Source: Candidatus Woykebacteria bacterium RIFCSPLOWO2_01_FULL_43_14 (GTDB lineage: Bacteria > Patescibacteriota > Microgenomatia > Woykebacterales > 2-01-FULL-43-14). Taken from it: 41,085 nucleotides of DNA. Each line of letters opens with the position of its first letter. Within the stretch, counting starts at the first letter, position 1. A program made the translations under genes and the position numbers. The stretch covers positions 23,523-64,607 of the forward strand of contig MHDB01000020.1 of NCBI GenBank assembly GCA_001816835.1, given 5' to 3'. Positions 1 to 31,994 of this stretch are shown piece by piece. The notes beneath the pieces were generated by a model. That model saw only the letters and a program-made list of their open reading frames with translations, searched no databases and was not told the DNA's origin.

Positions 1-520
1 TCAAACCCGCCAGTTCAGAAACACGCAGGCCAGTTGAAAATAACGTTTCCAGAATAGCTCGATCCCGAAGTCCCAATGGTTCTGAAGTATCAATCATAGA
101 CATAAGTTTTTCTAGCTGCTCGACGTTAAGAAAGGTAAGGCTGCGATCGCGCTCCTTACCAAGCTCGACTTGAGCACTACTCAACGCTGAAACATTTTCC
201 GAGGCTAAATAGTTTAAAAAGGCACGTATAGCAACCAAAAAGTAGTTCTGGGTGCTTCGCTTGAGCGGACCTTTAGTAGGATGGACCTTACCACTCAGAA
301 ACAAACGAAACTCGCGTACCATTTCTTTGGTAATTTGCCCGGGATCGGTAACTGGATGATTTTGGACAAGCCAGGCTGAGAAAGAGGAGAGGTAGTACTG
401 ATAAAGGCGAACCGTGCCTTTAGCCAGATTTTTGTCCAAGATACAATAATCGAGAAAGCGGCCAATATATTTTTCAAAGTTTGTGGAAATTTTTTTACTT
501 GGGTCCGTTGAGTTCGTCAT
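1..520 (-). CDS. Tyrosine recombinase/integrase, XerC/XerD-like (N-terminal part only; the gene runs off the left window edge)
   Basis: Absent from the ORF track because it has no stop in the window. Manual translation from ATG at 520-518 gives MTNSTDPSKKISTNFEKYIGRFLDYCILDKNLAKGTVRLYQYYLSSFSAWLVQ...QNYFLVAIRAFLNYL...LTFLNVEQLEKLM...LGLRDRAILETLFSTGLRVSELAGL. This is a SAM-like core-binding N-domain followed by the first catalytic box (Arg in GLRVSEL). Confidence 0.8.
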   Translation of the reverse strand, partial: MTNSTDPSKKISTNFEKYIGRFLDYCILDKNLAKGTVRLYQYYLSSFSAWLVQNHPVTDPGQITKEMVREFRLFLSGKVHPTKGPLKRSTQNYFLVAIRAFLNYLASENVSALSSAQVELGKERDRSLTFLNVEQLEKLMSMIDTSEPLGLRDRAILETLFSTGLRVSELAGL

Positions 521-1204
521 AGCAGAATAGAGCAGAGAATTGGTTTTCCTTAACGCGTCGTTAATTGATACTTTAGCGACGTCACAATAAGACTAGTCCA
601 TCTTCTTTAGACTGTCAATATAGATCTTCCTACGAAAGACTTAAATGCTATATCTAAGCACACACCGAGTAACTCTTATACTAAAGCAAGAAAAACTCAA
701 GATAGGCGGTTATCTATTCTCCACTTTGACTGGTCTACCAGCTGAAGCTAAACTTAAAGGCTCTGTAATGCCCTACAAGGCGCGATAAGCGGGAGGGACT
801 ACTTTGGATACCTTCAAAGAGGAATGGAAATAATCTATTAGGCCCGCTAAGGGGGATAAAGGAAGTTTAAAATTTTAATGGGTGACCTAAATTGGGAATT
901 TTGTATACGAAATTATAGAAAATTTTTGCACAAATTAATTAGTTACCAGCTGTCATAAAAGGGCCTGCGAGAAATTGTAGGTCTAATGCCTATAAGGCTG
1001 TTTAGTAATATTGTACGACATACTATATTTCCTACTCAGTTTCGCAAAAAGAGAGTGGTGGTTTTCACGGTATGAGTAACTGCAAGTAACAATTAAGTTG
1101 AGATAAGTAACATTATCGGAAGTAGAGCCGTCTTCTTCCCTATAGGACGTTGTCATCTAACATTCGGGTTTTGTTGGCTAGCACTCAAATACTACGCCTG
1201 CCAG

Positions 1205-6008: not shown

Positions 6009-6798
6009 CCACAAGATCCGGCATTTTTACTTCCACTGGTTTTTCAACTTCTATCTTAAGTGGTTCAGGTTTCTTTGGTGAAGGCTCTGGTGAAATCTTA
6101 GGTTCTACTTTAACAGCCTTTACAACCGGTTGAGCTGGTTGTGTTTCTTTGGGCGCTGGTTTTGGAGCTTCCACTATTTTTTCCTTAGTCTTATCCTCAT
6201 GAAGCTCTTTCTTTTTATCATCTTCACTATTAGACTTGGTTGGCACGACCTCCTCGGCTTTACTTTTCCCAGCAACACTCTCTAGAGCTATGTAGCTAGC
6301 GATGAGATTTCCCGCCGGTAAGAAGGCTACCACCTCATCACCTACCTCAGCCTTAAAGTGCTCAATAGAAGCGCCTAGAACTTTGTAGCTCCCTTCGGGA
6401 GTAACCACCCGGAATTTACCCTCTTTTTTAGTAACCATGCCCGTGGTTCGGTATCTTTTGACATGCTCTATCTGTTTAAACCGCTTTTCGCCATTATCCT
6501 CAACCATTTTTAAGGTATCTCCTACGACCAGCATACATTTAGAAGCATAGTTTTGGGGAATGGGGTGCTTATCACCAGCTTCGGTCACCATACTCTCGCC
6601 GTCGAAGATTCCTACTATCCCCGGTTTTTCCTTTTCTACCTGTGGGCTTTCTATTTTCCTAATTGGCTGAGGCGAGTTTTTCGGTAATTCCCGAGAAGCG
6701 CTCCCTTGGTCAATCTCGGCCAAAAGCTGCTTTGCTTGTCTTATGCTCGATTCAGCCGCACTCAGAGCCTGATTTATAAGTTGGGTCTTGTTACTCAT
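5989..6798 (-). CDS. Hypothetical protein with a helical N-terminus, beta-rich core and K/E/P-rich tail
   Basis: 269 aa. AAGGAGGAA sits in the 9-nt gap after the ATPase stop, so the two genes are co-transcribed and coupled. No recognisable family. Confidence 0.6.
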   Translation of the reverse strand: MSNKTQLINQALSAAESSIRQAKQLLAEIDQGSASRELPKNSPQPIRKIESPQVEKEKPGIVGIFDGESMVTEAGDKHPIPQNYASKCMLVVGDTLKMVEDNGEKRFKQIEHVKRYRTTGMVTKKEGKFRVVTPEGSYKVLGASIEHFKAEVGDEVVAFLPAGNLIASYIALESVAGKSKAEEVVPTKSNSEDDKKKELHEDKTKEKIVEAPKPAPKETQPAQPVVKAVKVEPKISPEPSPKKPEPLKIEVEKPVEVKMPDLVGEDELR

Positions 6799-6807
6799 TC
6801 TTCCTCC

Positions 6808-9420
6808 TTACGGTTTGGTGGGGAAAACTACTTCTCCCTCAATCTTCTGAGTTTCATTACTATTTGGTGGTTCTGCCCCAATGGTGCTAATTGTACTCTC
6901 AATTTGTCTATCCGTAGGCAACGTCGACGTCACTTCGTTTTCCCCCTCAACTGGGGCTTCAGCAACTACTGTAGGTGCCTCAGGTAAAACAGCCCAGGCA
7001 GGTGGAACAGGCGGCTGACCTGGTCGGAATTTGGTCTCAACCCACCGTTTGATAGTAAAATCAACCTTCTCCAGATCCCGACTGTACTTAGCTCTTGAAG
7101 CGCTTATAGCTTTTTCTTTTTGACCAGTGGTATCAGTATAGGGTGCCAAAGAACGGGCGCTGAAAGGCTGGGAGCTGGAATCGTTTATTTGCAGCTTAAG
7201 GTACATCTCAAACCTCCCCAGGTTAATAAGATCCATCGCCAGGAAAGTAGGCGCAAACTCCTTTTCCAAGAAGTAGGCATCTGTCGGACCAACCCCAAAA
7301 CAGACCAAGGTTCCGATGTTACCAAAAACCGCTTCCTTGACCTTTTCAGGCATCTGTTCGATATATTGGTGAGTAAGCGTCAAATTAAGCCTATACTTTC
7401 GCGCTTCGGACAAGATATTGGCAAAAGAGTCCGTGGCAAACTTCTGAAACTCGTCGGCATAGACATAGAAATCTTTTCTCTCCGCCTCAGGGATATCTAC
7501 TCTTCTCATAGCCGCAAATTGCAGTTGGGATATTACCATGGCTCCAAGCAATGAAGCATTGTTTTCACCAATACGACCTGTCGCTAGGTTTACGAAGAAG
7601 ATTTTCTTGTTATTAATTATCTCGTCTATCCTAATAGTACTCTTAGGCTGACCGACGATGTTACGAATCGTGGAAGCATTTAGGAATTGACCTACTTTAT
7701 TCTGAATTGGGGATATAGCTTCAGTTAAAAGCTTTTGGTTTCCCTTCATAGTCTTGAACTCTTTGTTCCAAAAATCCTTCATTACAGGATCGGAAATCAT
7801 GCTCACGATATAGTTTTGGTAATCTTGGTCTGTCAATAAACGGACAATCGACAAAAGTGAGGTGTGAGGGACTTCCAGCAAAGTCAAAATCGAATTCATT
7901 AATAGGTACTCAAGTCGGGGTCCCCAGCTCTCAGCGAAATACTTCTTAAAAACGTCTAGTAGTCCTGAAGCGATAAGGTTGCGCTGCCGAGGATCAACAA
8001 CCTCCAGCATATTCAAGGCCACTGGGTGATCAGCGTCTGCTGGATTAAAAATAACTACGTCATCTAACCGATTCTCGGGTACAAACTCCAGCAAGGCATC
8101 TATTAGGTCGCCATGAGGATCAAGTATGGCTACTCCCTCACCATTTTTCATATCTGAAATAATCATGTTTTTGATCAGGGTCGACTTACCACTTCCTGTC
8201 TTACCTATCAAGTACATGTGCTTACGCCGATCGGGCCTCTGAATACCAAACTTCACTCTGGCCTCTCGAAAGATAGTTTCGGCGAAATAAGTACAATCAG
8301 TTGTGGGAAGACTGAGTGGGGGCTCACCTTTTTTGGCCCGAGTCCAGGCGATCGCGGGTGTCTCTACCGAGATATTAGGTAAGTGCCAGATAGATGCGAG
8401 CTCCTCTATATTCAAGATGAAATTCCCCGTCTCCCCCATACCAAAGGTACGACTTCGGAATTTGCTAAGTAGTGATTCATCGTCGCTAGAATTAGTATAA
8501 TCAGCCACAAAATTATTTAAGCTTGCGGTGGAAAACTGTTTAAACGATCCTACGGCTGACTTGAGACGGTTTTCAGAGGTCGCTTTGCTATCAGAAAACG
8601 CAACACAACGAACTTTTACTTCGAACCCCATTTTACTAAGTTTGTTCTCGATCAGTTTGAGATCCAACTCTTGACCAGCAGATAGTTGGACACGCAGGGC
8701 AGGACCTGGTTTTGCAGGTAGCTGGGGGCCTCTAGCGATTTGCCCAGGTATCTCTATGATGTGGGAAAAAATGTTTCGGCTGATTTCTTTAGCTATCTCC
8801 TTAGGCGCAAAGCTAACAGGGTGTTCCCCAGCCCGGACCACTTCGACATACTTATGTCCCCTCTCTTGCCATATATCCTCTAACGGGCGGACCAACACCT
8901 GCAGCCATACTTGTTCGTTATTGCTGATATTTCCGAGAGCACCGGTCACCCCGGCAAGCGGATCTACTTCAAAATCCCGAAAGGTTTTAATCGGAAAAAT
9001 AGAGTCTTTTCCCAACGTAATTTCGCACGCGGCGTACTTCATACCGCTTACTTTGTGAGTGTAATCTTCTACTTCGCGAATTTCCGCAGCAGGATATTGA
9101 GCATAAATCTGCCCTTCAACGAAGTTCTTAAACTGTTTTGGGATAAAGGCATAAAAACGGATTCCGTCTGGGGTAGAGGCTATCTCCAAACTTAAGTGTT
9201 CTTGGATTCCGGGGGTAAAACGCAGAAGACCGTGCAATGAGGCAAACATCTGCTCAGCAGAAATGGGAGTCTTCTCGTTCTCCTTTGGCAATTCGATGGC
9301 GAGTAACACCCCTTCTGTTGGTTGCTCAACAGCCTTGGTAGTTTCTAATTTTTTTGCGGCTCTGTAGGCAAAAAAGAATGATAAAGCCAGCATTACCACA
9401 ATTCCTAAGATTAAATACAT
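6808..9420 (-). CDS. Membrane-anchored VirD4/TraD-like (FtsK/HerA-superfamily) P-loop ATPase
   Basis: 870 aa with an N-terminal TM helix (MYLILGIVVMLALSFFFAY) and an uncharacterised domain of about 390 aa. Walker A is LIGKTGSGKSTL and Walker B-like is FYVYADEFQKF. The segment LTLTHQYIEQM...GNIGTLVCFGVG resembles coupling-protein/TraD C-terminal regions. The tail is Pro-rich. Confidence 0.7.
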   Translation of the reverse strand: MYLILGIVVMLALSFFFAYRAAKKLETTKAVEQPTEGVLLAIELPKENEKTPISAEQMFASLHGLLRFTPGIQEHLSLEIASTPDGIRFYAFIPKQFKNFVEGQIYAQYPAAEIREVEDYTHKVSGMKYAACEITLGKDSIFPIKTFRDFEVDPLAGVTGALGNISNNEQVWLQVLVRPLEDIWQERGHKYVEVVRAGEHPVSFAPKEIAKEISRNIFSHIIEIPGQIARGPQLPAKPGPALRVQLSAGQELDLKLIENKLSKMGFEVKVRCVAFSDSKATSENRLKSAVGSFKQFSTASLNNFVADYTNSSDDESLLSKFRSRTFGMGETGNFILNIEELASIWHLPNISVETPAIAWTRAKKGEPPLSLPTTDCTYFAETIFREARVKFGIQRPDRRKHMYLIGKTGSGKSTLIKNMIISDMKNGEGVAILDPHGDLIDALLEFVPENRLDDVVIFNPADADHPVALNMLEVVDPRQRNLIASGLLDVFKKYFAESWGPRLEYLLMNSILTLLEVPHTSLLSIVRLLTDQDYQNYIVSMISDPVMKDFWNKEFKTMKGNQKLLTEAISPIQNKVGQFLNASTIRNIVGQPKSTIRIDEIINNKKIFFVNLATGRIGENNASLLGAMVISQLQFAAMRRVDIPEAERKDFYVYADEFQKFATDSFANILSEARKYRLNLTLTHQYIEQMPEKVKEAVFGNIGTLVCFGVGPTDAYFLEKEFAPTFLAMDLINLGRFEMYLKLQINDSSSQPFSARSLAPYTDTTGQKEKAISASRAKYSRDLEKVDFTIKRWVETKFRPGQPPVPPAWAVLPEAPTVVAEAPVEGENEVTSTLPTDRQIESTISTIGAEPPNSNETQKIEGEVVFPTKP

Positions 9421-11302: not shown

Positions 11303-11458
11303 AGCTCTTCCCTTCCCAGTTATTTCTGTCCAAAACAAACCCAGTTGTCCCGACAGTTGTAAACAATACTATCAGCATTATTGGTTTAGTGCAAACCTTA
11401 AATTTGACATTTGGCTCTATTGATGCTATACTAATAAGCGATCTCTCTCCTTTCTTCC

Positions 11459-11486
11459 GGAATGGGGCCAAAATTAGTCCCATTCC
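11459..11486 (+). repeat. Hairpin with conserved 12-nt loop GCCAAAATTAGT (second copy at 22808-22839, opposite strand)
   Basis: GGAATGGG-GCCAAAATTAGT-CCCATTCC. The same loop is closed by a different stem (GAGTG/CACTC) at 22.8 kb. Confidence 0.5.
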
Positions 11487-11491
11487 AAGGT

Positions 11492-11515
11492 AAAAGGCCC
11501 CGCAAGGGGCCTTTT
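11492..11515 (-). terminator. Bidirectional intrinsic terminator (ends the LCP operon)
   Basis: AAAAGGCCCC-GCAA-GGGGCCTTTT: a perfect 6-bp GC stem with a GNRA-type loop and A/T runs on both sides. Confidence 0.8.
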
Positions 11516-11551
11516 ACTGTTGTATGCCAAAATATTTAAATCTTGACTAAA

Positions 11552-12920: not shown

Positions 12921-14156
<1,236 letters not shown>

Positions 14157-14190
14157 CTAACAGTTTGGGTGATAAAGACCAAAATGGTTA

Positions 14191-20582: not shown

Positions 20583-22079
20583 TCAGTTTGTAGCGACTTC
20601 ATTTATGAGACTCGAAATCGTTTTTAGACCCACACCTGTCGGGCCTTTTGCCATGTACGGCTTTTCGCTATTCAACCAAGCCGTGCCCCCAATATCAATA
20701 TGAACCCAAGGAATCCCTGGCGCAACAAACTCCGAAAGAAACATCGCGCCAGCAATACTACCCGCCTGACGAGACGAGGGAACGTTGGCATAATCAGCTA
20801 TGGAGCTCTTGAGAAGCTCTTTGTAAAGATCAAAACTAGGCAATTGCCACATTTTTTCACCCGCCTTATTGGCATGTTCAATTATTTTATTAAGCCACTC
20901 TTGGTTATTCCCCATCACCCCACTCACCTCATATCCTAGCGCCGAAATTACCGCTCCTGTTAGAGTGGCCAGATCGATCAGATGGGTTATTCCCATTTCT
21001 TGAGACCAAAGCAGAGCATCCGCTAGAACAACCCTACCCTCAGCATCGGTGTTAATAACTTCTATAGTCTTGCCGTTCATGGCTTTGACGACATCCCCAG
21101 GTCGGACTGATTTGCCCGAAGGTAAATTCTCGGTTATGGGCATAACACCAACAACGTCTATATTTGGCTTAGTCATCGCCACAAGACGCATCGCCGACAG
21201 CACTGTGGCTGCTCCAGCCATATCCATTTTCATTTCTTCCATCTTATCGGAAGGCTTGATACTTATCCCCCCAGAATCGAAAGTCACACCTTTACCAACC
21301 AAACCTAAAACGCTTTTTTTGGGAGATTTTGCTCCGTGATAGGCAAGTTTTACCATAAATGAAGGTTCATCGCTCCCGGAGGCGATTGCGCAAAAAGCGC
21401 CCATCCCTTTTTCTCTAGCCTGTTTTTCATCAAGAACTTCAATCTCCAAATCAAATTCAGTAGCTAAACTCTTAGCCTCTTCAACAACCCTCTGTGGGGT
21501 GAGAATGTTAGCCGGTTCGGCAACCAACCTCCTAGCCCAGTTTATGCACTCGCCCACTTGAACTCCGTTAGTAATTTCCGCTTCTACTTTTTCGCTAGTT
21601 GGTACATCCAAATTAAAAACTACATCACTTAAGTCTTTGACGTCCTCTTTTTTCGAAACATAAATCGCGGGGTCAAAAACTCCAGTCAAAAGACCTTCAA
21701 CCATCAGAGACATTTCCCTTAGATCCGGTTTGGGAGTTGAAATACATAATCCCGCTTGAGTGATACCTTTTTTGGCAAGCGTTCGTCCTGCAAAAGCCGC
21801 TAATTTGGTTAACTTAGCGCTATCAAATTCACTACTTTTACCAGAGCCTAGCACCAAAACTTTTTTTGGAGTTATCTTGCCAAAGGTATAAATAAGGGTG
21901 CTTTCGAATAATTTAGCTTTTATTTCCCCATTTTTAAGGCCTTGAGAAATCACACTATCTAAAGCCTGGTCGATCTGAGCGACACGTGGAGATAGATTTT
22001 GGTCGCCTTCAAAAATGTTCAAGACCAAGGTATCTAGCTTTAATTGTTCGGGAGACAGAGTTGAAATAGAAAATTTCAT
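20583..22079 (-). CDS. pepA: Leucyl aminopeptidase (M17)
   Basis: VGKGVTFDSGGISIKP and NTDAEGRVVLADAL are signatures. Start set at MKFSISTL (22079), 6 nt after a TATACT box. The track ORF starts at 22115. Confidence 0.9.
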   Translation of the reverse strand: MKFSISTLSPEQLKLDTLVLNIFEGDQNLSPRVAQIDQALDSVISQGLKNGEIKAKLFESTLIYTFGKITPKKVLVLGSGKSSEFDSAKLTKLAAFAGRTLAKKGITQAGLCISTPKPDLREMSLMVEGLLTGVFDPAIYVSKKEDVKDLSDVVFNLDVPTSEKVEAEITNGVQVGECINWARRLVAEPANILTPQRVVEEAKSLATEFDLEIEVLDEKQAREKGMGAFCAIASGSDEPSFMVKLAYHGAKSPKKSVLGLVGKGVTFDSGGISIKPSDKMEEMKMDMAGAATVLSAMRLVAMTKPNIDVVGVMPITENLPSGKSVRPGDVVKAMNGKTIEVINTDAEGRVVLADALLWSQEMGITHLIDLATLTGAVISALGYEVSGVMGNNQEWLNKIIEHANKAGEKMWQLPSFDLYKELLKSSIADYANVPSSRQAGSIAGAMFLSEFVAPGIPWVHIDIGGTAWLNSEKPYMAKGPTGVGLKTISSLINEVATN

Positions 22080-22137
22080 GGGGTAAGTATAACAGCTTGG
22101 CCTTAAAACACGCAAACAAGAAAAGGGCAGTTAAAAA

Positions 22138-22278
22138 CTACCCTTTAAGTACCCAATCTAGGAGCGAATTAAGCTTGTAGGCTAAAGGTAACGCGCTGAG
22201 TAGCAAGACAACCCAAGCAACGTATACTTCGTCTGGAATGTTACTAAGTTCTTCGCCCATCTCAGACTCAGATTTCAT
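22138..22278 (-). CDS. Small (46 aa) single-TM protein, hypothetical
   Basis: Below the track's size cut-off. Manual translation gives MKSESEMGEELSNIPDEVYVAWVVLLLSALPLAYKLNSLLDWVLKG. It starts 3 nt after the stop of the preceding small ORF. Confidence 0.35.
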   Translation of the reverse strand: MKSESEMGEELSNIPDEVYVAWVVLLLSALPLAYKLNSLLDWVLKG

Positions 22279-22280
22279 AC

Positions 22281-22472
22281 TTACCACCTATCTACCGAGT
22301 CGTCGGTTGTCGACCAACTTAGAAACCCTTCACTGTCTGTAGATAAAAGTTTGACCTTTTGTAGAAAATTTATCATCCCTATCACTCCCCAAAGAATGAA
22401 CCCAGCCATAGCCATCGCCCCGCTGATAAAAAGTAAAGCGGCGGCTACCCACCTATCGTTTCTGTCACTCAC
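22281..22472 (-). CDS. Small (63 aa) membrane protein, hypothetical
   Basis: GTG start preceded by TAgTACAAT (-10) and an AAAGGGG SD-like element. One long hydrophobic segment (WVAAALLFISGAMAMAGFILWGVIGMI). Confidence 0.45.
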   Translation of the reverse strand: MSDRNDRWVAAALLFISGAMAMAGFILWGVIGMINFLQKVKLLSTDSEGFLSWSTTDDSVDRW

Positions 22473-22597
22473 TTCTCTAACCCCTTTTCGAGGAGATTGT
22501 ACTACTAGCTAGCTTTAAATTCAACACGAATCTATACAACCTAGGAGGTTAAACAGGTAGGTAACCTAGGAAATAGTCTATCTAACTACAAGAAGAC

Positions 22598-23018
22598 CAA
22601 AAAGAAAAGGCTAGCGAAACTACAAGAGTCTCAACTAGCCTACTGATTTCCAAAGCCGACGGAGGCTAAGGAAGACAATGGAAGGGAGAGGAAACCTCCG
22701 TCGACCAAGTTGGGTTAGAATTTGCTCATAGTGGTATGGGCCACTCGGAGCAGCTGGCCGGCAAAACCAGCTTACTAGGTGAAACCCATTCACCCAGTCC
22801 AAATATCGTGGGAGTGACTAATTTTGGCCACTCAACCACAGTTAATCTCATACCGTTCTCTCCTACCCCATGGGGCAAGTGACTAACGAGAACGGCTCAA
22901 CGCGAGTCAGGACTTCCGAACGAACCTTCGGAAACCTTTCTCGCTACAGCGCCCCCAGTACGTCCCATGGAACGTTGGGGGTAGCGAGGTCACACTTGGG
23001 CAACACCATAGCGCGACC
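22598..23018 (-). ncRNA. Candidate structured non-coding RNA of about 420 nt, unclassified
   Basis: Bounded by a minus-strand promoter (23054-23025) and a stem plus U-run terminator (22641-22598). The body is G+C-richer and packed with hairpins. One stem has a G.U pair only on the minus strand. See findings. Confidence 0.45.
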
Positions 23019-23024
23019 AAATCA

Positions 23025-23054
23025 ACCATACCACCGCAGTTTAACTTTTGTCAA
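23025..23054 (-). promoter_or_regulatory. Promoter of the ncRNA candidate
   Basis: On the minus strand: TTGACA (23054-23049), 18-nt spacer, TATGGT (23030-23025). Confidence 0.5.
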
Positions 23055-23118
23055 CTAACCCTCACACCTGGTGTGAGGTAGGTTCGCACATCTGGACAAT
23101 AATAATGGGAAGTCGTAA

Positions 23119-24246
23119 CTAAATTGTTACTTTAGAGATATCCTTTGGGGATTTAGTCAGAGTTTCGCAGCCTGATTTTGTCACAAGGACTAGGTCTTCA
23201 ATTCGTATCCCACCCCAACCAGGAATATAGATCCCAGGCTCGACTGAGATAACATTTCCTTCCTGCAAGACGTCTGTGGATCGAAGTGAAACTGACGGAA
23301 GCTCGTGAACTTCAAGTCCAATCCCATGACTTAACCCATGACCGTAAGGCTTATACCCAGCCTTTTCAACTACCTCACGGGCAGCAGCGTCTACTTCTTT
23401 ACTCTTTGCGCCAGGGTGAATACGCCTCATCGCAGACTCTTGGGCATCCCAAACTACTTGATAGACTTTTCGCTGATCAGCAGTCGGTTTACCCATAAAA
23501 ACTACGCGTGAAATATCAGAACAATACCCATTCACGACTGCGCCAAAGTCAAGCTGAAGCATATCTTGTTTTTGCAGTTGTGCTTTTCCTGGGTGGTAAT
23601 GAGGCATTGAAGAGTTTGCTCCAACGGCGACTATGAACGGATGCCAAGCAACACGCTCCGCGCCCTCTTCACGGATTAGTTTTTCGAGCAGCCAAGCTAT
23701 TTCTATTTCAGTTTGTCCCGGTTTTATAGCAACCAAAAGTTTGGCAAACGCTCGGTCAGCGATATCAACACTTTTTTGAATTTGCGCTATCTCGTAAGGA
23801 TCTTTGACGGATCGTACCTTCTCAATTACTCCCTGAGTACTCACCAAGTTAAGTTTGGCGGCTCGACTCCTGTCTCTGAGTTCTAACACCTGGCGATGAG
23901 TAATCTTGTGAGACTCGTAACCAACTCTTTCACCTTCGAACGACCGAGAATATGATTCCCAAAAACTATCAAATGGCGTGTCAATTTGGTTAACTTTTAC
24001 AGGAGGAGATTGGTTCTGTGCAAGCTCTGTATACCGAGAGTCAACAAAAAGGGTAACGCCATCCTCACTCACCAGGACCCACCCAGTACTGCCAGTAAAT
24101 CCAGTAAGATAGAGTCTATTGGCGGGGTCTTCAGTTAAGAAAAACTTCAGATTCTTCTTTTTCAGAGACTCTTTCAGTTTCCTGAGCCTCCCGGGATAAT
24201 CCGGGAGCATATCTTGGTGATCGTTTAAGTTTTGTTTCATCTTCAT
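23119..24246 (-). CDS. pepP: Xaa-Pro aminopeptidase (M24B)
   Basis: Creatinase-like N-domain (NRLYLTGFTGS). M24 metal ligands are in DFGAVVNGYCSDISR, HGLSHGIGLEVHE and SVEPGIY. A start at 24246 or at 24210 (MLPDYPG) both overlap the upstream gene. Confidence 0.88.
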   Translation of the reverse strand: MKMKQNLNDHQDMLPDYPGRLRKLKESLKKKNLKFFLTEDPANRLYLTGFTGSTGWVLVSEDGVTLFVDSRYTELAQNQSPPVKVNQIDTPFDSFWESYSRSFEGERVGYESHKITHRQVLELRDRSRAAKLNLVSTQGVIEKVRSVKDPYEIAQIQKSVDIADRAFAKLLVAIKPGQTEIEIAWLLEKLIREEGAERVAWHPFIVAVGANSSMPHYHPGKAQLQKQDMLQLDFGAVVNGYCSDISRVVFMGKPTADQRKVYQVVWDAQESAMRRIHPGAKSKEVDAAAREVVEKAGYKPYGHGLSHGIGLEVHELPSVSLRSTDVLQEGNVISVEPGIYIPGWGGIRIEDLVLVTKSGCETLTKSPKDISKVTI

Positions 24247-24835
24247 CGTTTATAATAAGCGGATACTTTCTGGGTCTTCCTCGTGGTCGCTTTGGTTTGA
24301 GTTCGGCTGACGTGGCAGCCAGTAACTTACGGGGTCTCCCTCGCTCTCGTTTGATTATACCCAATACACGTAGTTCTTCCATCCCGACCATACGGCTTTC
24401 GCGACCTGAGCAATATGGACAGTACGGCCAATTGATTTGGCTCACTCGATTACAGGCAAGACAAACTTTCTTTAGGCTTTGGCTACAACTTGGACAAAAA
24501 ATGTAATCCTTCTCCAGCACAAACCCACAGGTGGGACAAATCCCCTCGAGTGACTCCTTGATCAAAAGTTTTTCTTCAAGTCTTTTCTGTGCGGATTCGG
24601 CCAGAGTTAGGCGTGGTCTTAAGAACATGTAAAGAAACAAGCCAAAAATCCCACCGACCAAGACCAAAAAGGCAGCTGAGATATGAACAGCTCTGCTCCT
24701 TGATCTATCTTTGATGTCCACCCAAGTATAAAGAATCAAACCAAACCAAATAAGACCAAGGTAAGTCGAGACGATCATCCAAATATATGGGGCTTTAAAT
24801 GCATTAACCACAAATTCCAAGCTCATAAATAACAT
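24131..24835 (-). CDS. Membrane-anchored double zinc-ribbon protein with two C-terminal AT-hooks
   Basis: PLDc_N-like two-TM N-terminus (…GGIFGLFLYMFLRPR). Zinc ribbon CPTCG...CPSC...CLAC...CPYC. Two RGRPRK motifs (KRERGRPRKLL, KRPRGRPRKYP). Confidence 0.65.
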   Translation of the reverse strand: MLFMSLEFVVNAFKAPYIWMIVSTYLGLIWFGLILYTWVDIKDRSRSRAVHISAAFLVLVGGIFGLFLYMFLRPRLTLAESAQKRLEEKLLIKESLEGICPTCGFVLEKDYIFCPSCSQSLKKVCLACNRVSQINWPYCPYCSGRESRMVGMEELRVLGIIKRERGRPRKLLAATSAELKPKRPRGRPRKYPLIINDEDETKLKRSPRYAPGLSREAQETERVSEKEESEVFLN

Positions 24836-24845
24836 TAATAACAGG

Positions 24846-24874
24846 TTGACTTTTACTTAACAAAAACATACAAT
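24846..24874 (+). promoter_or_regulatory. Promoter of the 24884 membrane-protein gene
   Basis: TTGACT (24846-24851), 17-nt spacer, TACAAT (24869-24874), then 9 nt to the ATG. Confidence 0.6.
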
Positions 24875-24883
24875 CGCAACTAT

Positions 24884-25309
24884 ATGCTTTCGACCCCTCA
24901 TCTGCTCGTTGGTGCCACTGTTGGTTCCCTAAGCGCAAATCCTTTATTAGCTTTTTTGGCAGGAATAGCTTCTCATTTTATCATGGACCTGATCCCTCAT
25001 TGGGAATGGAAACCGTCAAATCCAATGTATGTCTTTCTTGCTTTCTTTGACTTTTTCTTTGGGGCAGCTCTTCTTTTCGTGCTTACAATTAACTCCTCAG
25101 ATCCTTTTTTGGTCTGGGCAGGGGCGATGGGGGGAGTTTTTCCAGATATCCTTCAAGCTCCTTACTACCTACTACACCGTAAGGTAAAGGTCTTGGAACC
25201 ATTAAGATCTTTTCACGGGAGTATTCAGCGCTACAAGGTTCCGATATATGCTGGAGTGCTTACGCAAATTGTGACTCTGATCATCACTTCTTGGTTCCTC
25301 ACTCGTTAG
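24884..25309 (+). CDS. Small polytopic membrane protein, hypothetical
   Basis: 141 aa, 4 hydrophobic helices, with an HFIMDLIPHWEW His/Asp motif. Confidence 0.55.
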   Translation: MLSTPHLLVGATVGSLSANPLLAFLAGIASHFIMDLIPHWEWKPSNPMYVFLAFFDFFFGAALLFVLTINSSDPFLVWAGAMGGVFPDILQAPYYLLHRKVKVLEPLRSFHGSIQRYKVPIYAGVLTQIVTLIITSWFLTR

Positions 25310-30989: not shown

Positions 30990-31049
30990 GGTTTTAATTT
31001 AACAGAAAATCCCTTATGCAACAATACGATTTTCTAGTACAATAACTAC

Positions 31050-31994
31050 ATGCCTGTCTACCTAACACCAGAGCGACTTGGTATCATTGCCATCACCATT
31101 GCCTGGATTATTTGGGGAGCACATCCTATCGCCGCCAAATTTGGAATTGAAACAATTCCAATTTATAGTTTGATTTTCTATCGATTATTTTTCGCTACGC
31201 TAATCATCCTTCCACTAACCATTAATCAGCTCCGTACGATCAGATTTACACCTTCTCTACTCAAGCAACTTCTTATCGCTAGTCTGCTGGGAATAGTACT
31301 CAACATTATATTTTTCTTCATCGGGCTTGAGCACACTCAAGCAATTGACGCAGCACTCATTATGGCCACCATACCTCTTATTACTCTTCTTAGCGCAAGA
31401 GTTTTTCTGAAGGAAAAAATAACTCCACCAGAAGTAATAGGCGCACTTGTGGGTCTCATGGGCACCGGCCTTATTTTTTTCAAGCCATTCCTCGAGGAAG
31501 ACCAACACACAGCTGAGCGCTTCCTAGGTAACATATTTATTGCGCTAGCGGTGGTTACCTGGGTAGCCTTCACAATATATACGAAACGAATCGAAAAGGA
31601 AATCAACCCGAGCGTTATTACCACTTCGGTCATTTGGATAGGGATGGTCATGCTCTTCCCACTAATGATTTGGGACATGTATCGCTATCCCAACTGGATT
31701 CACGACATCAAACCAATTTCTCTTTACAGCATGATCTATATGACTCTCGGATCAACTATCGGCGCTTATTTCTTGTATGAATGGGGTTTGAAATACGTCA
31801 AAGCAGGTCTGGCAGGGATTTTGAGCAATATTTCAGTAGTTATTACTTTATTTCTAGGAAGCCTTGTTTTAGGAGAAAAAATCACCACCCTTACCCTTGC
31901 AGGAGCTGTTTTACTCGTAGCAGGAGTTATCGCTGCTGGTCTTAAAGGCTCTAGACACATTACCCACCAACATCACCATAGACACAAAGTTTAG
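31050..31994 (+). CDS. DMT-superfamily (EamA-like) transporter with a His-rich C-terminus
   Basis: 10 TM helices in two EamA-like halves. The tail is SRHITHQHHHRHKV. Confidence 0.8.
   Translation: MPVYLTPERLGIIAITIAWIIWGAHPIAAKFGIETIPIYSLIFYRLFFATLIILPLTINQLRTIRFTPSLLKQLLIASLLGIVLNIIFFFIGLEHTQAIDAALIMATIPLITLLSARVFLKEKITPPEVIGALVGLMGTGLIFFKPFLEEDQHTAERFLGNIFIALAVVTWVAFTIYTKRIEKEINPSVITTSVIWIGMVMLFPLMIWDMYRYPNWIHDIKPISLYSMIYMTLGSTIGAYFLYEWGLKYVKAGLAGILSNISVVITLFLGSLVLGEKITTLTLAGAVLLVAGVIAAGLKGSRHITHQHHHRHKV

Follow-up and report, generated by a model that had tools for sequence, protein, structure and literature searches.

A predicted stand-alone structured noncoding RNA gene in the variable pepP-pepA gap of a Woykebacteria genome

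The DNA analysed here, referred to below as the window, is a stretch of 41,085 nucleotides (nt) of contig MHDB01000020.1 from Candidatus Woykebacteria bacterium RIFCSPLOWO2_01_FULL_43_14. On its minus strand, pepP (23119-24246) and pepA (20583-22079) are separated by a gap of ~1 kb, and this gap includes a candidate noncoding RNA (ncRNA) gene of ~421 nt at 22598-23018, which is also read from the minus strand and has pepP as its upstream and pepA as its downstream neighbour. The initial annotation of this DNA, made from the letters alone, had described a minus-strand, promoter-to-terminator, hairpin-rich RNA of ~0.4 kb without an assignable family, and this description is supported by the transcription signals, the predicted fold, the blank result of the Rfam search, and the homologs found in related genomes. 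The same annotation reported no long open reading frame (ORF) in the gap. This is correct for the RNA body, in which the longest ORFs are 40-62 amino acids (aa), but not for the remainder of the gap, where two small conserved membrane-protein genes, 22281-22472 (63 aa) and 22138-22287 (49 aa), lie on the minus strand between the RNA and pepA.

The RNA is preceded by a sigma-70-type promoter on the minus strand (23025-23054) that consists of a -35 box TTGACA at 23054-23049, an 18-nt spacer, and a TG-extended -10 box TATGGT at 23030-23025. This promoter had been recognised by eye, and it was found again by a promoter scan, in which it scored 10 of 12 matches with the TG present. Sites of the form TTGAC[AT]-N16-18-TAnnnT are infrequent, with only 11 in the 41-kb window including that of the RNA. 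A hairpin located directly 3' of pepP (23078-23060, minus strand) precedes the promoter, and the RNA start is predicted near G23018 of the minus strand. At the other end, ~420 nt downstream of the promoter, an intrinsic terminator (22598-22641, minus strand) is formed by AGGCUAGU at 22641-22634 and GCUAGCCU at 22615-22608, with an inner 6-bp helix, and is followed by UUUUCUUUUU at 22607-22598. The terminator stem and U-run, likewise noted earlier, are seen in the sequence and in the minimum free energy (MFE) fold. A simple terminator scan missed this hairpin because the scan was limited to loops of 3-8 nt.

Folding of the minus strand with RNAfold gave an MFE of -187.8 kcal/mol, as compared with -138.5 +/- 5.8 kcal/mol for shuffled sequences (z = -8.55). 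The shuffles preserved dinucleotides, and base composition is therefore controlled. For the RNA body, 136 base pairs are predicted, which form about 12 hairpins, and the G+C content of the body, 52%, exceeds that of the window (0.52 and 0.43, respectively), in agreement with the G+C richness remarked on before. The plus strand also folds better than its shuffles, though less strongly (z = -5.93), and 19 of the 136 pairs in the fold from 23018 are G.U pairs that become A.C mismatches if read on the plus strand; the suggested preference for the minus strand is thus borne out by both the z scores and the G.U pairs. A plus-strand reading as a GGA-rich, CsrB-like sponge was considered and rejected, given that no plus-strand promoter was found, the U-run is present on the minus strand only, the z score is weaker, and the 19 G.U pairs are lost. 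In the fold from the predicted start, no pairing between the 5' and 3' ends was seen.

All hairpins listed in the initial annotation were recovered in the MFE fold at the positions given there, with two corrections to their extent. The 5' domain (22841-23018, minus strand) includes four hairpins in the MFE fold, among them the two-tier CCCCCA/UGGGGG stem and a hairpin bearing GGAAGUCC. The two-tier stem had been placed at 22940-22988; its inner CCCCCA/UGGGGG tier was retained, but the outer arm is paired otherwise in the MFE structure. The central domain (22724-22840, minus strand) is made up of four hairpins and the junction AUAUUUGGA, and is conserved in the RNA of a related locus, L082. One of its hairpins, GAGUGGC[CAAAAUUA]GUCACUC at 22812-22833 (minus strand, loop in brackets), has a loop with an unpaired probability of 0.99, and its counterpart in L082 is GAGUGAC[CAAAACA]GUCGCUC. 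Towards the 3' end, the MFE fold has a hairpin at 22654-22706 (minus strand) with a pyrimidine-rich loop of 25 nt, UCCUCUCCCUUCCAUUGUCUUCCUU at 22692-22668. No other single-stranded segment of the RNA is as long as this loop, which also has an unpaired probability of 0.99. Its stem had been described as 9 bp long (22657-22703); the stem itself was confirmed, but its size is 14 bp (22706-22693 with 22667-22654). The 9-mer AGTGACTAA does recur, as stated earlier, in two copies, but this is weak evidence, as 6 of 100 shuffles likewise have two.

Corresponding loci of related genomes were compared with the window. Two of them, L087 and L088, belong to the same species (99.8% DNA identity across the locus) and carry an RNA that is 100% identical to that of the window and hence uninformative for covariation. 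The L082 locus, in which PepA is ~60% identical, includes a 169-aa ORFan, a TTGACA promoter, a ~430-nt structured RNA (z = -7.5), and a terminator. Plain alignment of this RNA with that of the window revealed one significant block of 45 nt, located in the central domain (z = 9.1 compared with shuffles). In L085 (GCA_034680565.1; PepA 63% identical), the contig begins within the 3' end of the RNA, directly upstream of pepA.

Three covariance models, R1, R2 and R3, were built, each from a single sequence with the window MFE structure. R1, representing the central domain (22724-22840), matched L082 at 6732-6834 with 24.0 bits (E = 5e-4). R2, representing the 3' domain (22598-22723), matched L085 at 38-149 with 25.8 bits (E = 2e-4) and L082 at 6907-7037 with 19.8 bits (E = 7e-3). 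All significant matches of R1 and R2 are confined to the syntenic gap and have the orientation of the genes, and unrelated loci totalling 768 kb gave the models top noise scores of 13.6 and 13.8 bits (R1 not above 13.6). R3, which represents part of the 5' domain (22841-22944), gave no significant match in the relatives.

In the alignments for the 3' and central domains, 97.5% and 98.6% of cells, respectively, formed pairs, as compared with 28-52% when the partners were slid, and two-sided changes were found at 21 of 32 pairs and at 13 of 39 pairs, respectively, these pair counts being inflated by the fitting of the alignments to the window's own predicted structure. The 14-bp stem is fully paired both in the window (GGUCGACGGAGGUU/AGCCUCCGUCGGCU) and in L085 (AGCGCAGCUUCGGU/ACUGAAGCUGCGCU), with two-sided changes at 9 of its 14 pairs among the three aligned sequences. 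The same helices were predicted again by RNAalifold, with covariation terms of -7.5 and -7.1, and the terminators of L085 (AGGCUGG..CCAGCCUUUUCUUUUU) and L082 align with that of the window and show compensatory changes. Conservation and covariation in the gap of relatives, named in the initial annotation as a check on the RNA, were thereby found, in that structure-aware models detected homologs in the syntenic gap with compensatory changes.

Other relatives show how variable the content of the gap is. L081 (PepP 60% identical) has a 165-aa ORFan, a promoter of the L082 type, a ~280-nt RNA (z = -5.7), a terminator, and a 138-aa membrane ORF; this RNA lacks the whole central domain and is tied to that of the window only via L082. 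L109 (1-355; PepA 59% identical) has 320 nt of G+C-rich structured sequence and a terminator upstream of pepA. L108 (1217-1587; PepP 57% identical) has a TTGACA promoter ~100 nt after pepP, followed by structured sequence (z = -6.2) over 240 nt or more, and shares a 13-mer, GTAGGAGAGAACG, with the window. A TTGACA promoter thus occupies the corresponding position in L081, L082 and L108. In L108 the promoter is retained, as is the terminator in L085 and L109; the contigs of these three end before the other signal. In L083, L084, L107 and L110, the contig stops before the RNA or no match was detectable. The pepP-pepA gap is a hypervariable island, in which the ORFans differ by lineage and none has a Pfam domain.

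From these data, a small, fast-evolving RNA family is envisaged, which has so far been seen only in a Woykebacteria-related clade of the candidate phyla radiation (CPR) and always in the variable pepP-pepA gap. Several observations weigh against this reading. Besides the inflation of the pair counts, each domain rests on only two or three distinct sequences, and the 5' 180 nt of the RNA have no detectable homolog; the 5' domain appears to be lineage-specific. In L086 (PepA 53% identical), the spacing between pepP and pepA is only 52 nt and there is no RNA, and in L111, also from Woykebacteria, the gap is occupied by two ORFans of 182 and 93 aa on the minus strand, opposite to the genes, again with no RNA. 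The L108 and L109 RNAs could not be aligned significantly to that of the window apart from the 13-mer of L108. These sequences may be homologs that have diverged beyond recognition or else RNAs of independent origin, and the gap RNAs may thus not all belong to one family. Finally, all 18 matches found in a scan of JGI metagenomes with the conserved central motif, AGTCNCTCNCN{2,10}TTTGGACTGGG, were chance matches lacking the upstream half of the hairpin.

The patchy, modular homology, together with a gap that holds different ORFans in every lineage or nothing at all (L086) and in or just before which the contigs of several relatives break, might also be expected if the sequence were fast-decaying, non-functional filler of the island, such as the remnant of a mobile or foreign insert or of a degraded gene, whose folding would be a by-product of G+C-rich composition. 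This is improbable in light of the z score of -8.6 relative to dinucleotide-preserving shuffles, the two-sided changes that maintain helices between lineages, and the near-consensus promoter and intrinsic terminator that the window, L081, and L082 have all kept. Moreover, a distant-mode blastn search revealed no similarity to phage or plasmid records, and no repeats were found in the window. A scan of viral contigs with the hairpin motif gave 0 matches.

The orientation of the RNA, which is the same as that of the genes downstream, its position always upstream of them, and the intrinsic terminator at its end, a feature of many riboswitch expression platforms, would also suit a long cis-acting leader, either a riboswitch or an attenuator. 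The terminator would then control read-through into the small membrane-protein genes in the window and into pepA in relatives. However, the window, L084, L109, L082 and L085 all have an extended -10 box, TGnTATACT or closely similar to it, 6-7 nt ahead of the start codon of pepA, and this box is downstream of the RNA terminator wherever the terminator is present. In the window, this box is TGTTATACT, located 6 nt before the ATG. Hence, pepA is most likely transcribed from its own promoter as a leaderless mRNA, and with this conserved promoter the RNA would not be the pepA leader. A second, weaker promoter-like site (22524-22496, minus strand), found by scan, is located before the small membrane-protein ORFs, and a further terminator (22146-22122, minus strand) follows them and precedes pepA. 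The gene downstream of the RNA changes between lineages, the conservation of the RNA sequence is far below that of ligand-binding cores, no riboswitch family was matched, and an alternative anti-terminator pairing is not evident. A leader function is accordingly considered distinctly improbable, and a stand-alone RNA is preferred.

The coding potential of the RNA body was also assessed. The sole ORF with a good ribosome-binding site, AGGAG at 22866-22862 followed after 8 nt by AUG, comprises 41 codons (22851-22726) and lies almost wholly inside the central domain. The well-spaced Shine-Dalgarno (SD)-like AGGAG could indicate that the RNA encodes a small protein or has a dual function, as could the 13-mer GUAGGAGAGAACG, which is present also in L108 and is followed there by a GUG-initiated frame. 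Nevertheless, the peptides of the window and L108 frames show negligible similarity, and the AGGAG lies within a 9-bp stem. In the alignment of the central domain with L082, indels of 1-2 nt and a UGA interrupt the frame of the window ORF while the helices are preserved. A phmmer search with a 50-aa version of the ORF against 1.84 billion representative proteins revealed no small-protein family, giving only five long tandem-repeat proteins, the scores of which are sums of weak matches; two of these five proteins, when read, look eukaryote-like. A coding role is thus very unlikely, and the check for a small ORF proposed earlier found no conserved frame, the ORF being broken in the homolog by a stop and by out-of-frame indels. 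The matches of this ORF (22726-22878) to VWA-repeat proteins were rejected as spurious sums of weak matches to near-identical repeats. As a caution in the use of phmmer, the 50-aa ORF attained E = 1e-19 with a VWA-like repeat protein of 2693 aa through a weak resemblance over 30 aa summed over 12 repeats.

At gathering thresholds, Rfam 15 had no match to the RNA, and the only match in the whole window was a tRNA-Leu. At E<=10, the search of 22080-23200 gave only noise and no match in the RNA, the best match being the terminator-like DapZ at 22115-22170, outside the RNA. The homologous loci likewise had no Rfam match (E<=1 to 5). The families OLE, GOLLD, ROOL, HEARO and raiA and the riboswitches gave no match in the gap either at E<=10. 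The search against Rfam, which had been recommended as the first check, thus yielded no family in the window or in the homologous loci, and the earlier statement that no family could be assigned stands at both thresholds.

A strongly diverged CPR housekeeping RNA might be missed by Rfam, the most plausible being RNase P RNA and the others transfer-messenger RNA (tmRNA), 6S RNA and signal recognition particle (SRP) RNA. No match to any of these four was found at E<=10 in the 1.1 kb searched or in the homologous loci. For tmRNA, ARAGORN detected only the tRNA-Leu in the window, and no T-arm of the GGUUCGA type precedes the RNA 3' end. Unlike 6S RNA, which is a rod of 180-200 nt with a central bubble, the RNA is a 421-nt multi-branched molecule with ~12 hairpins.

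The case of RNase P is less simple, since the RNase P RNAs of many CPR genomes score below Rfam thresholds: for 10 of 35 circular CPR genomes, the RF00010 threshold had to be lowered to ~5 bits, and RNase P helices that are missing or extended were also reported (Lui et al. 2021, PMC8172020). Consequently, the lack of a match to RF00010 and RF00011 at E<=10 (roughly at least 15 bits) in 22080-23200 and in the homologous loci is to be read against the scores of ~5 bits that CPR members can have. The length of ~420 nt, the G+C richness, and the presence of an own promoter and terminator all fit RNase P RNA, and the window RNA has GGAAGUCC, which resembles conserved region I (CR-I), GGGUGAAUGGGU...GUAAG, which resembles CR-II/III, and CGGCUU near the 3' end, which resembles CR-V. 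However, the CR-I-, CR-II- and CR-V-like motifs are absent from L082, L081 and L085, and in the window they are parts of covarying local hairpins. CGGCUU and GGGUGAA are arms of such hairpins: the 14-bp stem, fully kept in L085 through compensatory changes, has GUCGGCU as its 3' arm, and CUGGGUGAA is a hairpin arm. The CR-II/CR-III elements (A-GGGUGAAA-GGGUG ... GUAAG) should be unpaired junctions flanking P12, whereas GGGUGAAUGGGU forms the arm and loop of a local hairpin, and the equivalent hairpin in L082 has a different sequence, CUGGGGUA/UGCCCCGG. A P4 helix between GGAAGUCC and CGGCUU would have 5 bp at most, whereas P4 of the family joins CR-I (GGAAAGUCC...) and CR-V (ACAGAA..CGGCUUA). 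Furthermore, no helix joins the 5' and 3' ends when the predicted start is used, the whole central domain is missing from L081, and the sequence has turned over, at a level of ~60% identity between the neighbouring proteins, much more rapidly than RNase P or tmRNA cores do. The RNase P reading, at which the initial annotation had weakly hinted, was therefore rejected on comparative grounds, the motif GGAAGUCC being not conserved and its partner CGGCUU lying within a covarying local hairpin, and a diverged housekeeping RNA of any kind is regarded as highly improbable.

The pyrimidine-rich loop of the 14-bp hairpin has parallels in the relatives, which have C/U-rich tracts as well: CAACUUCCCCUC in the L085 loop, CCUCUCCUUCUCUCCUUCC in L081, and UCUCCUCUCCUC in L082. 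A second small-RNA candidate of ~80 nt was found on the plus strand of the window at 11439-11520. Its promoter, TTGACA at 11404, a 17-nt spacer, and TGcTATACT ending at 11432, matches at 11 of 12 positions. Its 5' end is a 21-nt unpaired C/U-rich segment, GAUCUCUCUCCUUUCUUCC, resembling the 3' end of 16S rRNA, and the loop and closing bases of its hairpin at 11459-11486, GGCCAAAAUUAGUC, are identical to those of the hairpin at 22812-22833 in the pepP-pepA gap RNA. This candidate ends in a terminator hairpin (fold z = -6.3), is convergent with a gene for a LytR_C-domain protein, and has no Rfam family above the gathering threshold. The common features suggest that the two predicted RNAs share a design in which a pyrimidine-rich interaction site is combined with a recognition hairpin.

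A mechanism can be tentatively proposed, in which the gap RNA would act in trans with its stable hairpins as a scaffold. Activity would reside in the unpaired C/U-rich loop of 25 nt, whose target would be a purine-rich stretch of RNA or a protein that binds pyrimidines, and the hairpin with the CAAAAUUA loop, common to the second small RNA, would be a recognition site for a shared partner, for example a nuclease, a chaperone, or an RNA complementary to it. The RNA has its own promoter and terminator and an accessible pyrimidine-rich loop, as would be expected of a trans-acting base-pairing small RNA with a C/U-rich seed. Weighing on the other side, RNAduplex gave a mean of -8.24 kcal/mol for duplexes of the loop with 45 start regions and of -7.91 kcal/mol for all 30-nt windows, a weak test of complementarity since the start codons were called mechanically, and the best duplex sites fall within coding regions. 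Since most genes look poor in SD motifs or leaderless, a general role as a mimic of the anti-SD sequence is also unsupported. As judged by these data, the trans-acting mechanism in this form is rather doubtful. The particular possibility of an anti-SD mimic acting at translation starts was not supported: no excess complementarity was seen, a loose SD motif is present in only 13 of 45 genes, and many genes look leaderless. The description of the CU-rich loop as anti-SD-like in the initial annotation was thus not upheld by a direct test of complementarity.

Absence of SD motifs extends beyond the neighbourhood of the RNA. Many genes of the window have a -10-like TAnnnT box 5-8 nt before the start and no SD motif (for example, at 22080-22095, 24846-24886, 31020-31052, and 12921-14160), and the loose SD motif was seen in only 13 of the 45 start regions of the window, which suggests widespread leaderless translation in this organism.

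The genes around the gap are arranged in the order EFP-(145 aa)-DZR-pepP-[gap]-pepA-MFS-LGT, which is conserved in relatives. The closest homologs of PepP and PepA are encoded on metagenome contigs, and the nearest named taxon is Candidatus Woykebacteria, with 44-48% identity. A scan of a genome collection with PepP was dominated by the generic M24 peptidase motif, the best among the matches listed being 47% identical. When the N-terminal 160 aa of PepA (encoded at 21600-22079) were the query, the protein search found nothing, though the full-length protein gave a 99% match, and the word prefilter can thus miss relatives of short queries. The 63-aa and 49-aa membrane-protein ORFs are conserved at the protein level in L084 (positions 1-378; PepA 77% identical), and for neither of them was a Pfam family found, with only a weak hint of DUF6703. 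The pepP ORF, mechanically delimited at 375 aa, shares 116 nt with the gene upstream of it, DZR (double zinc ribbon; 24131-24835, minus strand). On the contigs of the same species, the pepP start is called later, giving 317 aa, and the true start is probably downstream. At the left end of the window, an ORF at 2-592 (minus strand) runs off the edge, has an end motif ...LRVSELAGL typical of tyrosine recombinases, and is preceded by a TTGACA promoter at 618-590. The adjacent ~780 nt (600-1376) are low in G+C and include no ORF of 60 aa or more, the one present being of 57 aa.

Taken together, the predicted transcription signals, the fold, and the compensatory changes indicate that the RNA is probably a genuine novel ncRNA gene. 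The complete reading, in which 23018-22598 of the minus strand is a real stand-alone structured ncRNA gene of ~420 nt that acts by the mechanism proposed above and belongs to a small, fast-evolving family confined so far to the pepP-pepA gap of the Woykebacteria-related CPR clade, is given a probability of about 0.6. A further-reaching possibility is that the RNA stands as the first representative of a previously undescribed class of modular structured RNAs, large in size (280-430 nt) and restricted to one CPR lineage, that go beyond base-pairing regulators and function, for example, as a ribonucleoprotein (RNP) scaffold or a ribozyme. In such a class, the central junction (UUUGGA and the flanking hairpins) and the pyrimidine loop would together be the functional core, and the small RNA at 11439-11520 would have the same partner via the CAAAAUUA hairpin; this set of proposals is considered unlikely.

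The CPR, or Patescibacteria, make up a large share of bacterial diversity and have tiny genomes with very little noncoding DNA. To our knowledge, their regulatory RNAs have hardly been described. An RNA of 420 nt that is strongly promoted, conserves its structure and is retained in so small a genome is probably important for the cell. Few large ncRNAs of bacteria fall outside all families, and they have repeatedly proved to be ribozymes, RNP scaffolds or unusual regulators. The locus also illustrates a pattern useful for discovery, in which the syntenic position of an RNA gene is constant but turnover of its sequence, and of entire domains, is so rapid that its recognition depends on structure-aware models. 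A narrow distribution and a small number of homologs limit the claims that can be made.

Among known systems, the diverged CPR RNase P RNAs (PMC8172020) are similar in size, G+C richness, CPR host and position below Rfam thresholds, and isolated motifs resembling CR-I, CR-II and CR-V are present in the window RNA. Unlike in those RNAs, the motifs are unconserved and lie in covarying hairpins, there is no credible P4 and no P1, and the central domain is dispensable, as seen in L081.

A second comparison is with RNAIII and RsaE of Staphylococcus aureus and RoxS of Bacillus subtilis, whose exposed C- or C/U-rich loops target purine-rich ribosome-binding sites. No sequence or Rfam relationship to these RNAs exists, the loop has no extra complementarity to start regions, most genes of the window lack an SD motif, and there is one long loop instead of several short UCCC loops. 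Like them, however, the window RNA is a stand-alone unit with several stable hairpins and an unpaired pyrimidine loop (including CCUC and CUCC), and RNAIII is likewise large (514 nt) and composed of multiple hairpins.

The large orphan ncRNAs OLE, GOLLD, ROOL, raiA and HEARO/omega are discoveries of the Breaker/Weinberg type, made in G+C-rich intergenic regions of A+T-rich genomes. The window RNA differs from them in having no match to their families at E<=10, in its presence in a handful of related CPR genomes instead of a broad distribution, in the much faster turnover of its sequence and domain make-up, and in the lack of a steady protein-gene partner. It shares with them a length of more than 400 nt, a multi-hairpin structure supported by covariation, a G+C content higher than that of the genome, a location in a long intergenic region, and a promoter and terminator of its own. 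The RNA of the pepP-pepA gap, which is outside every catalogued family, thus resembles the stand-alone regulatory or scaffold ncRNAs.

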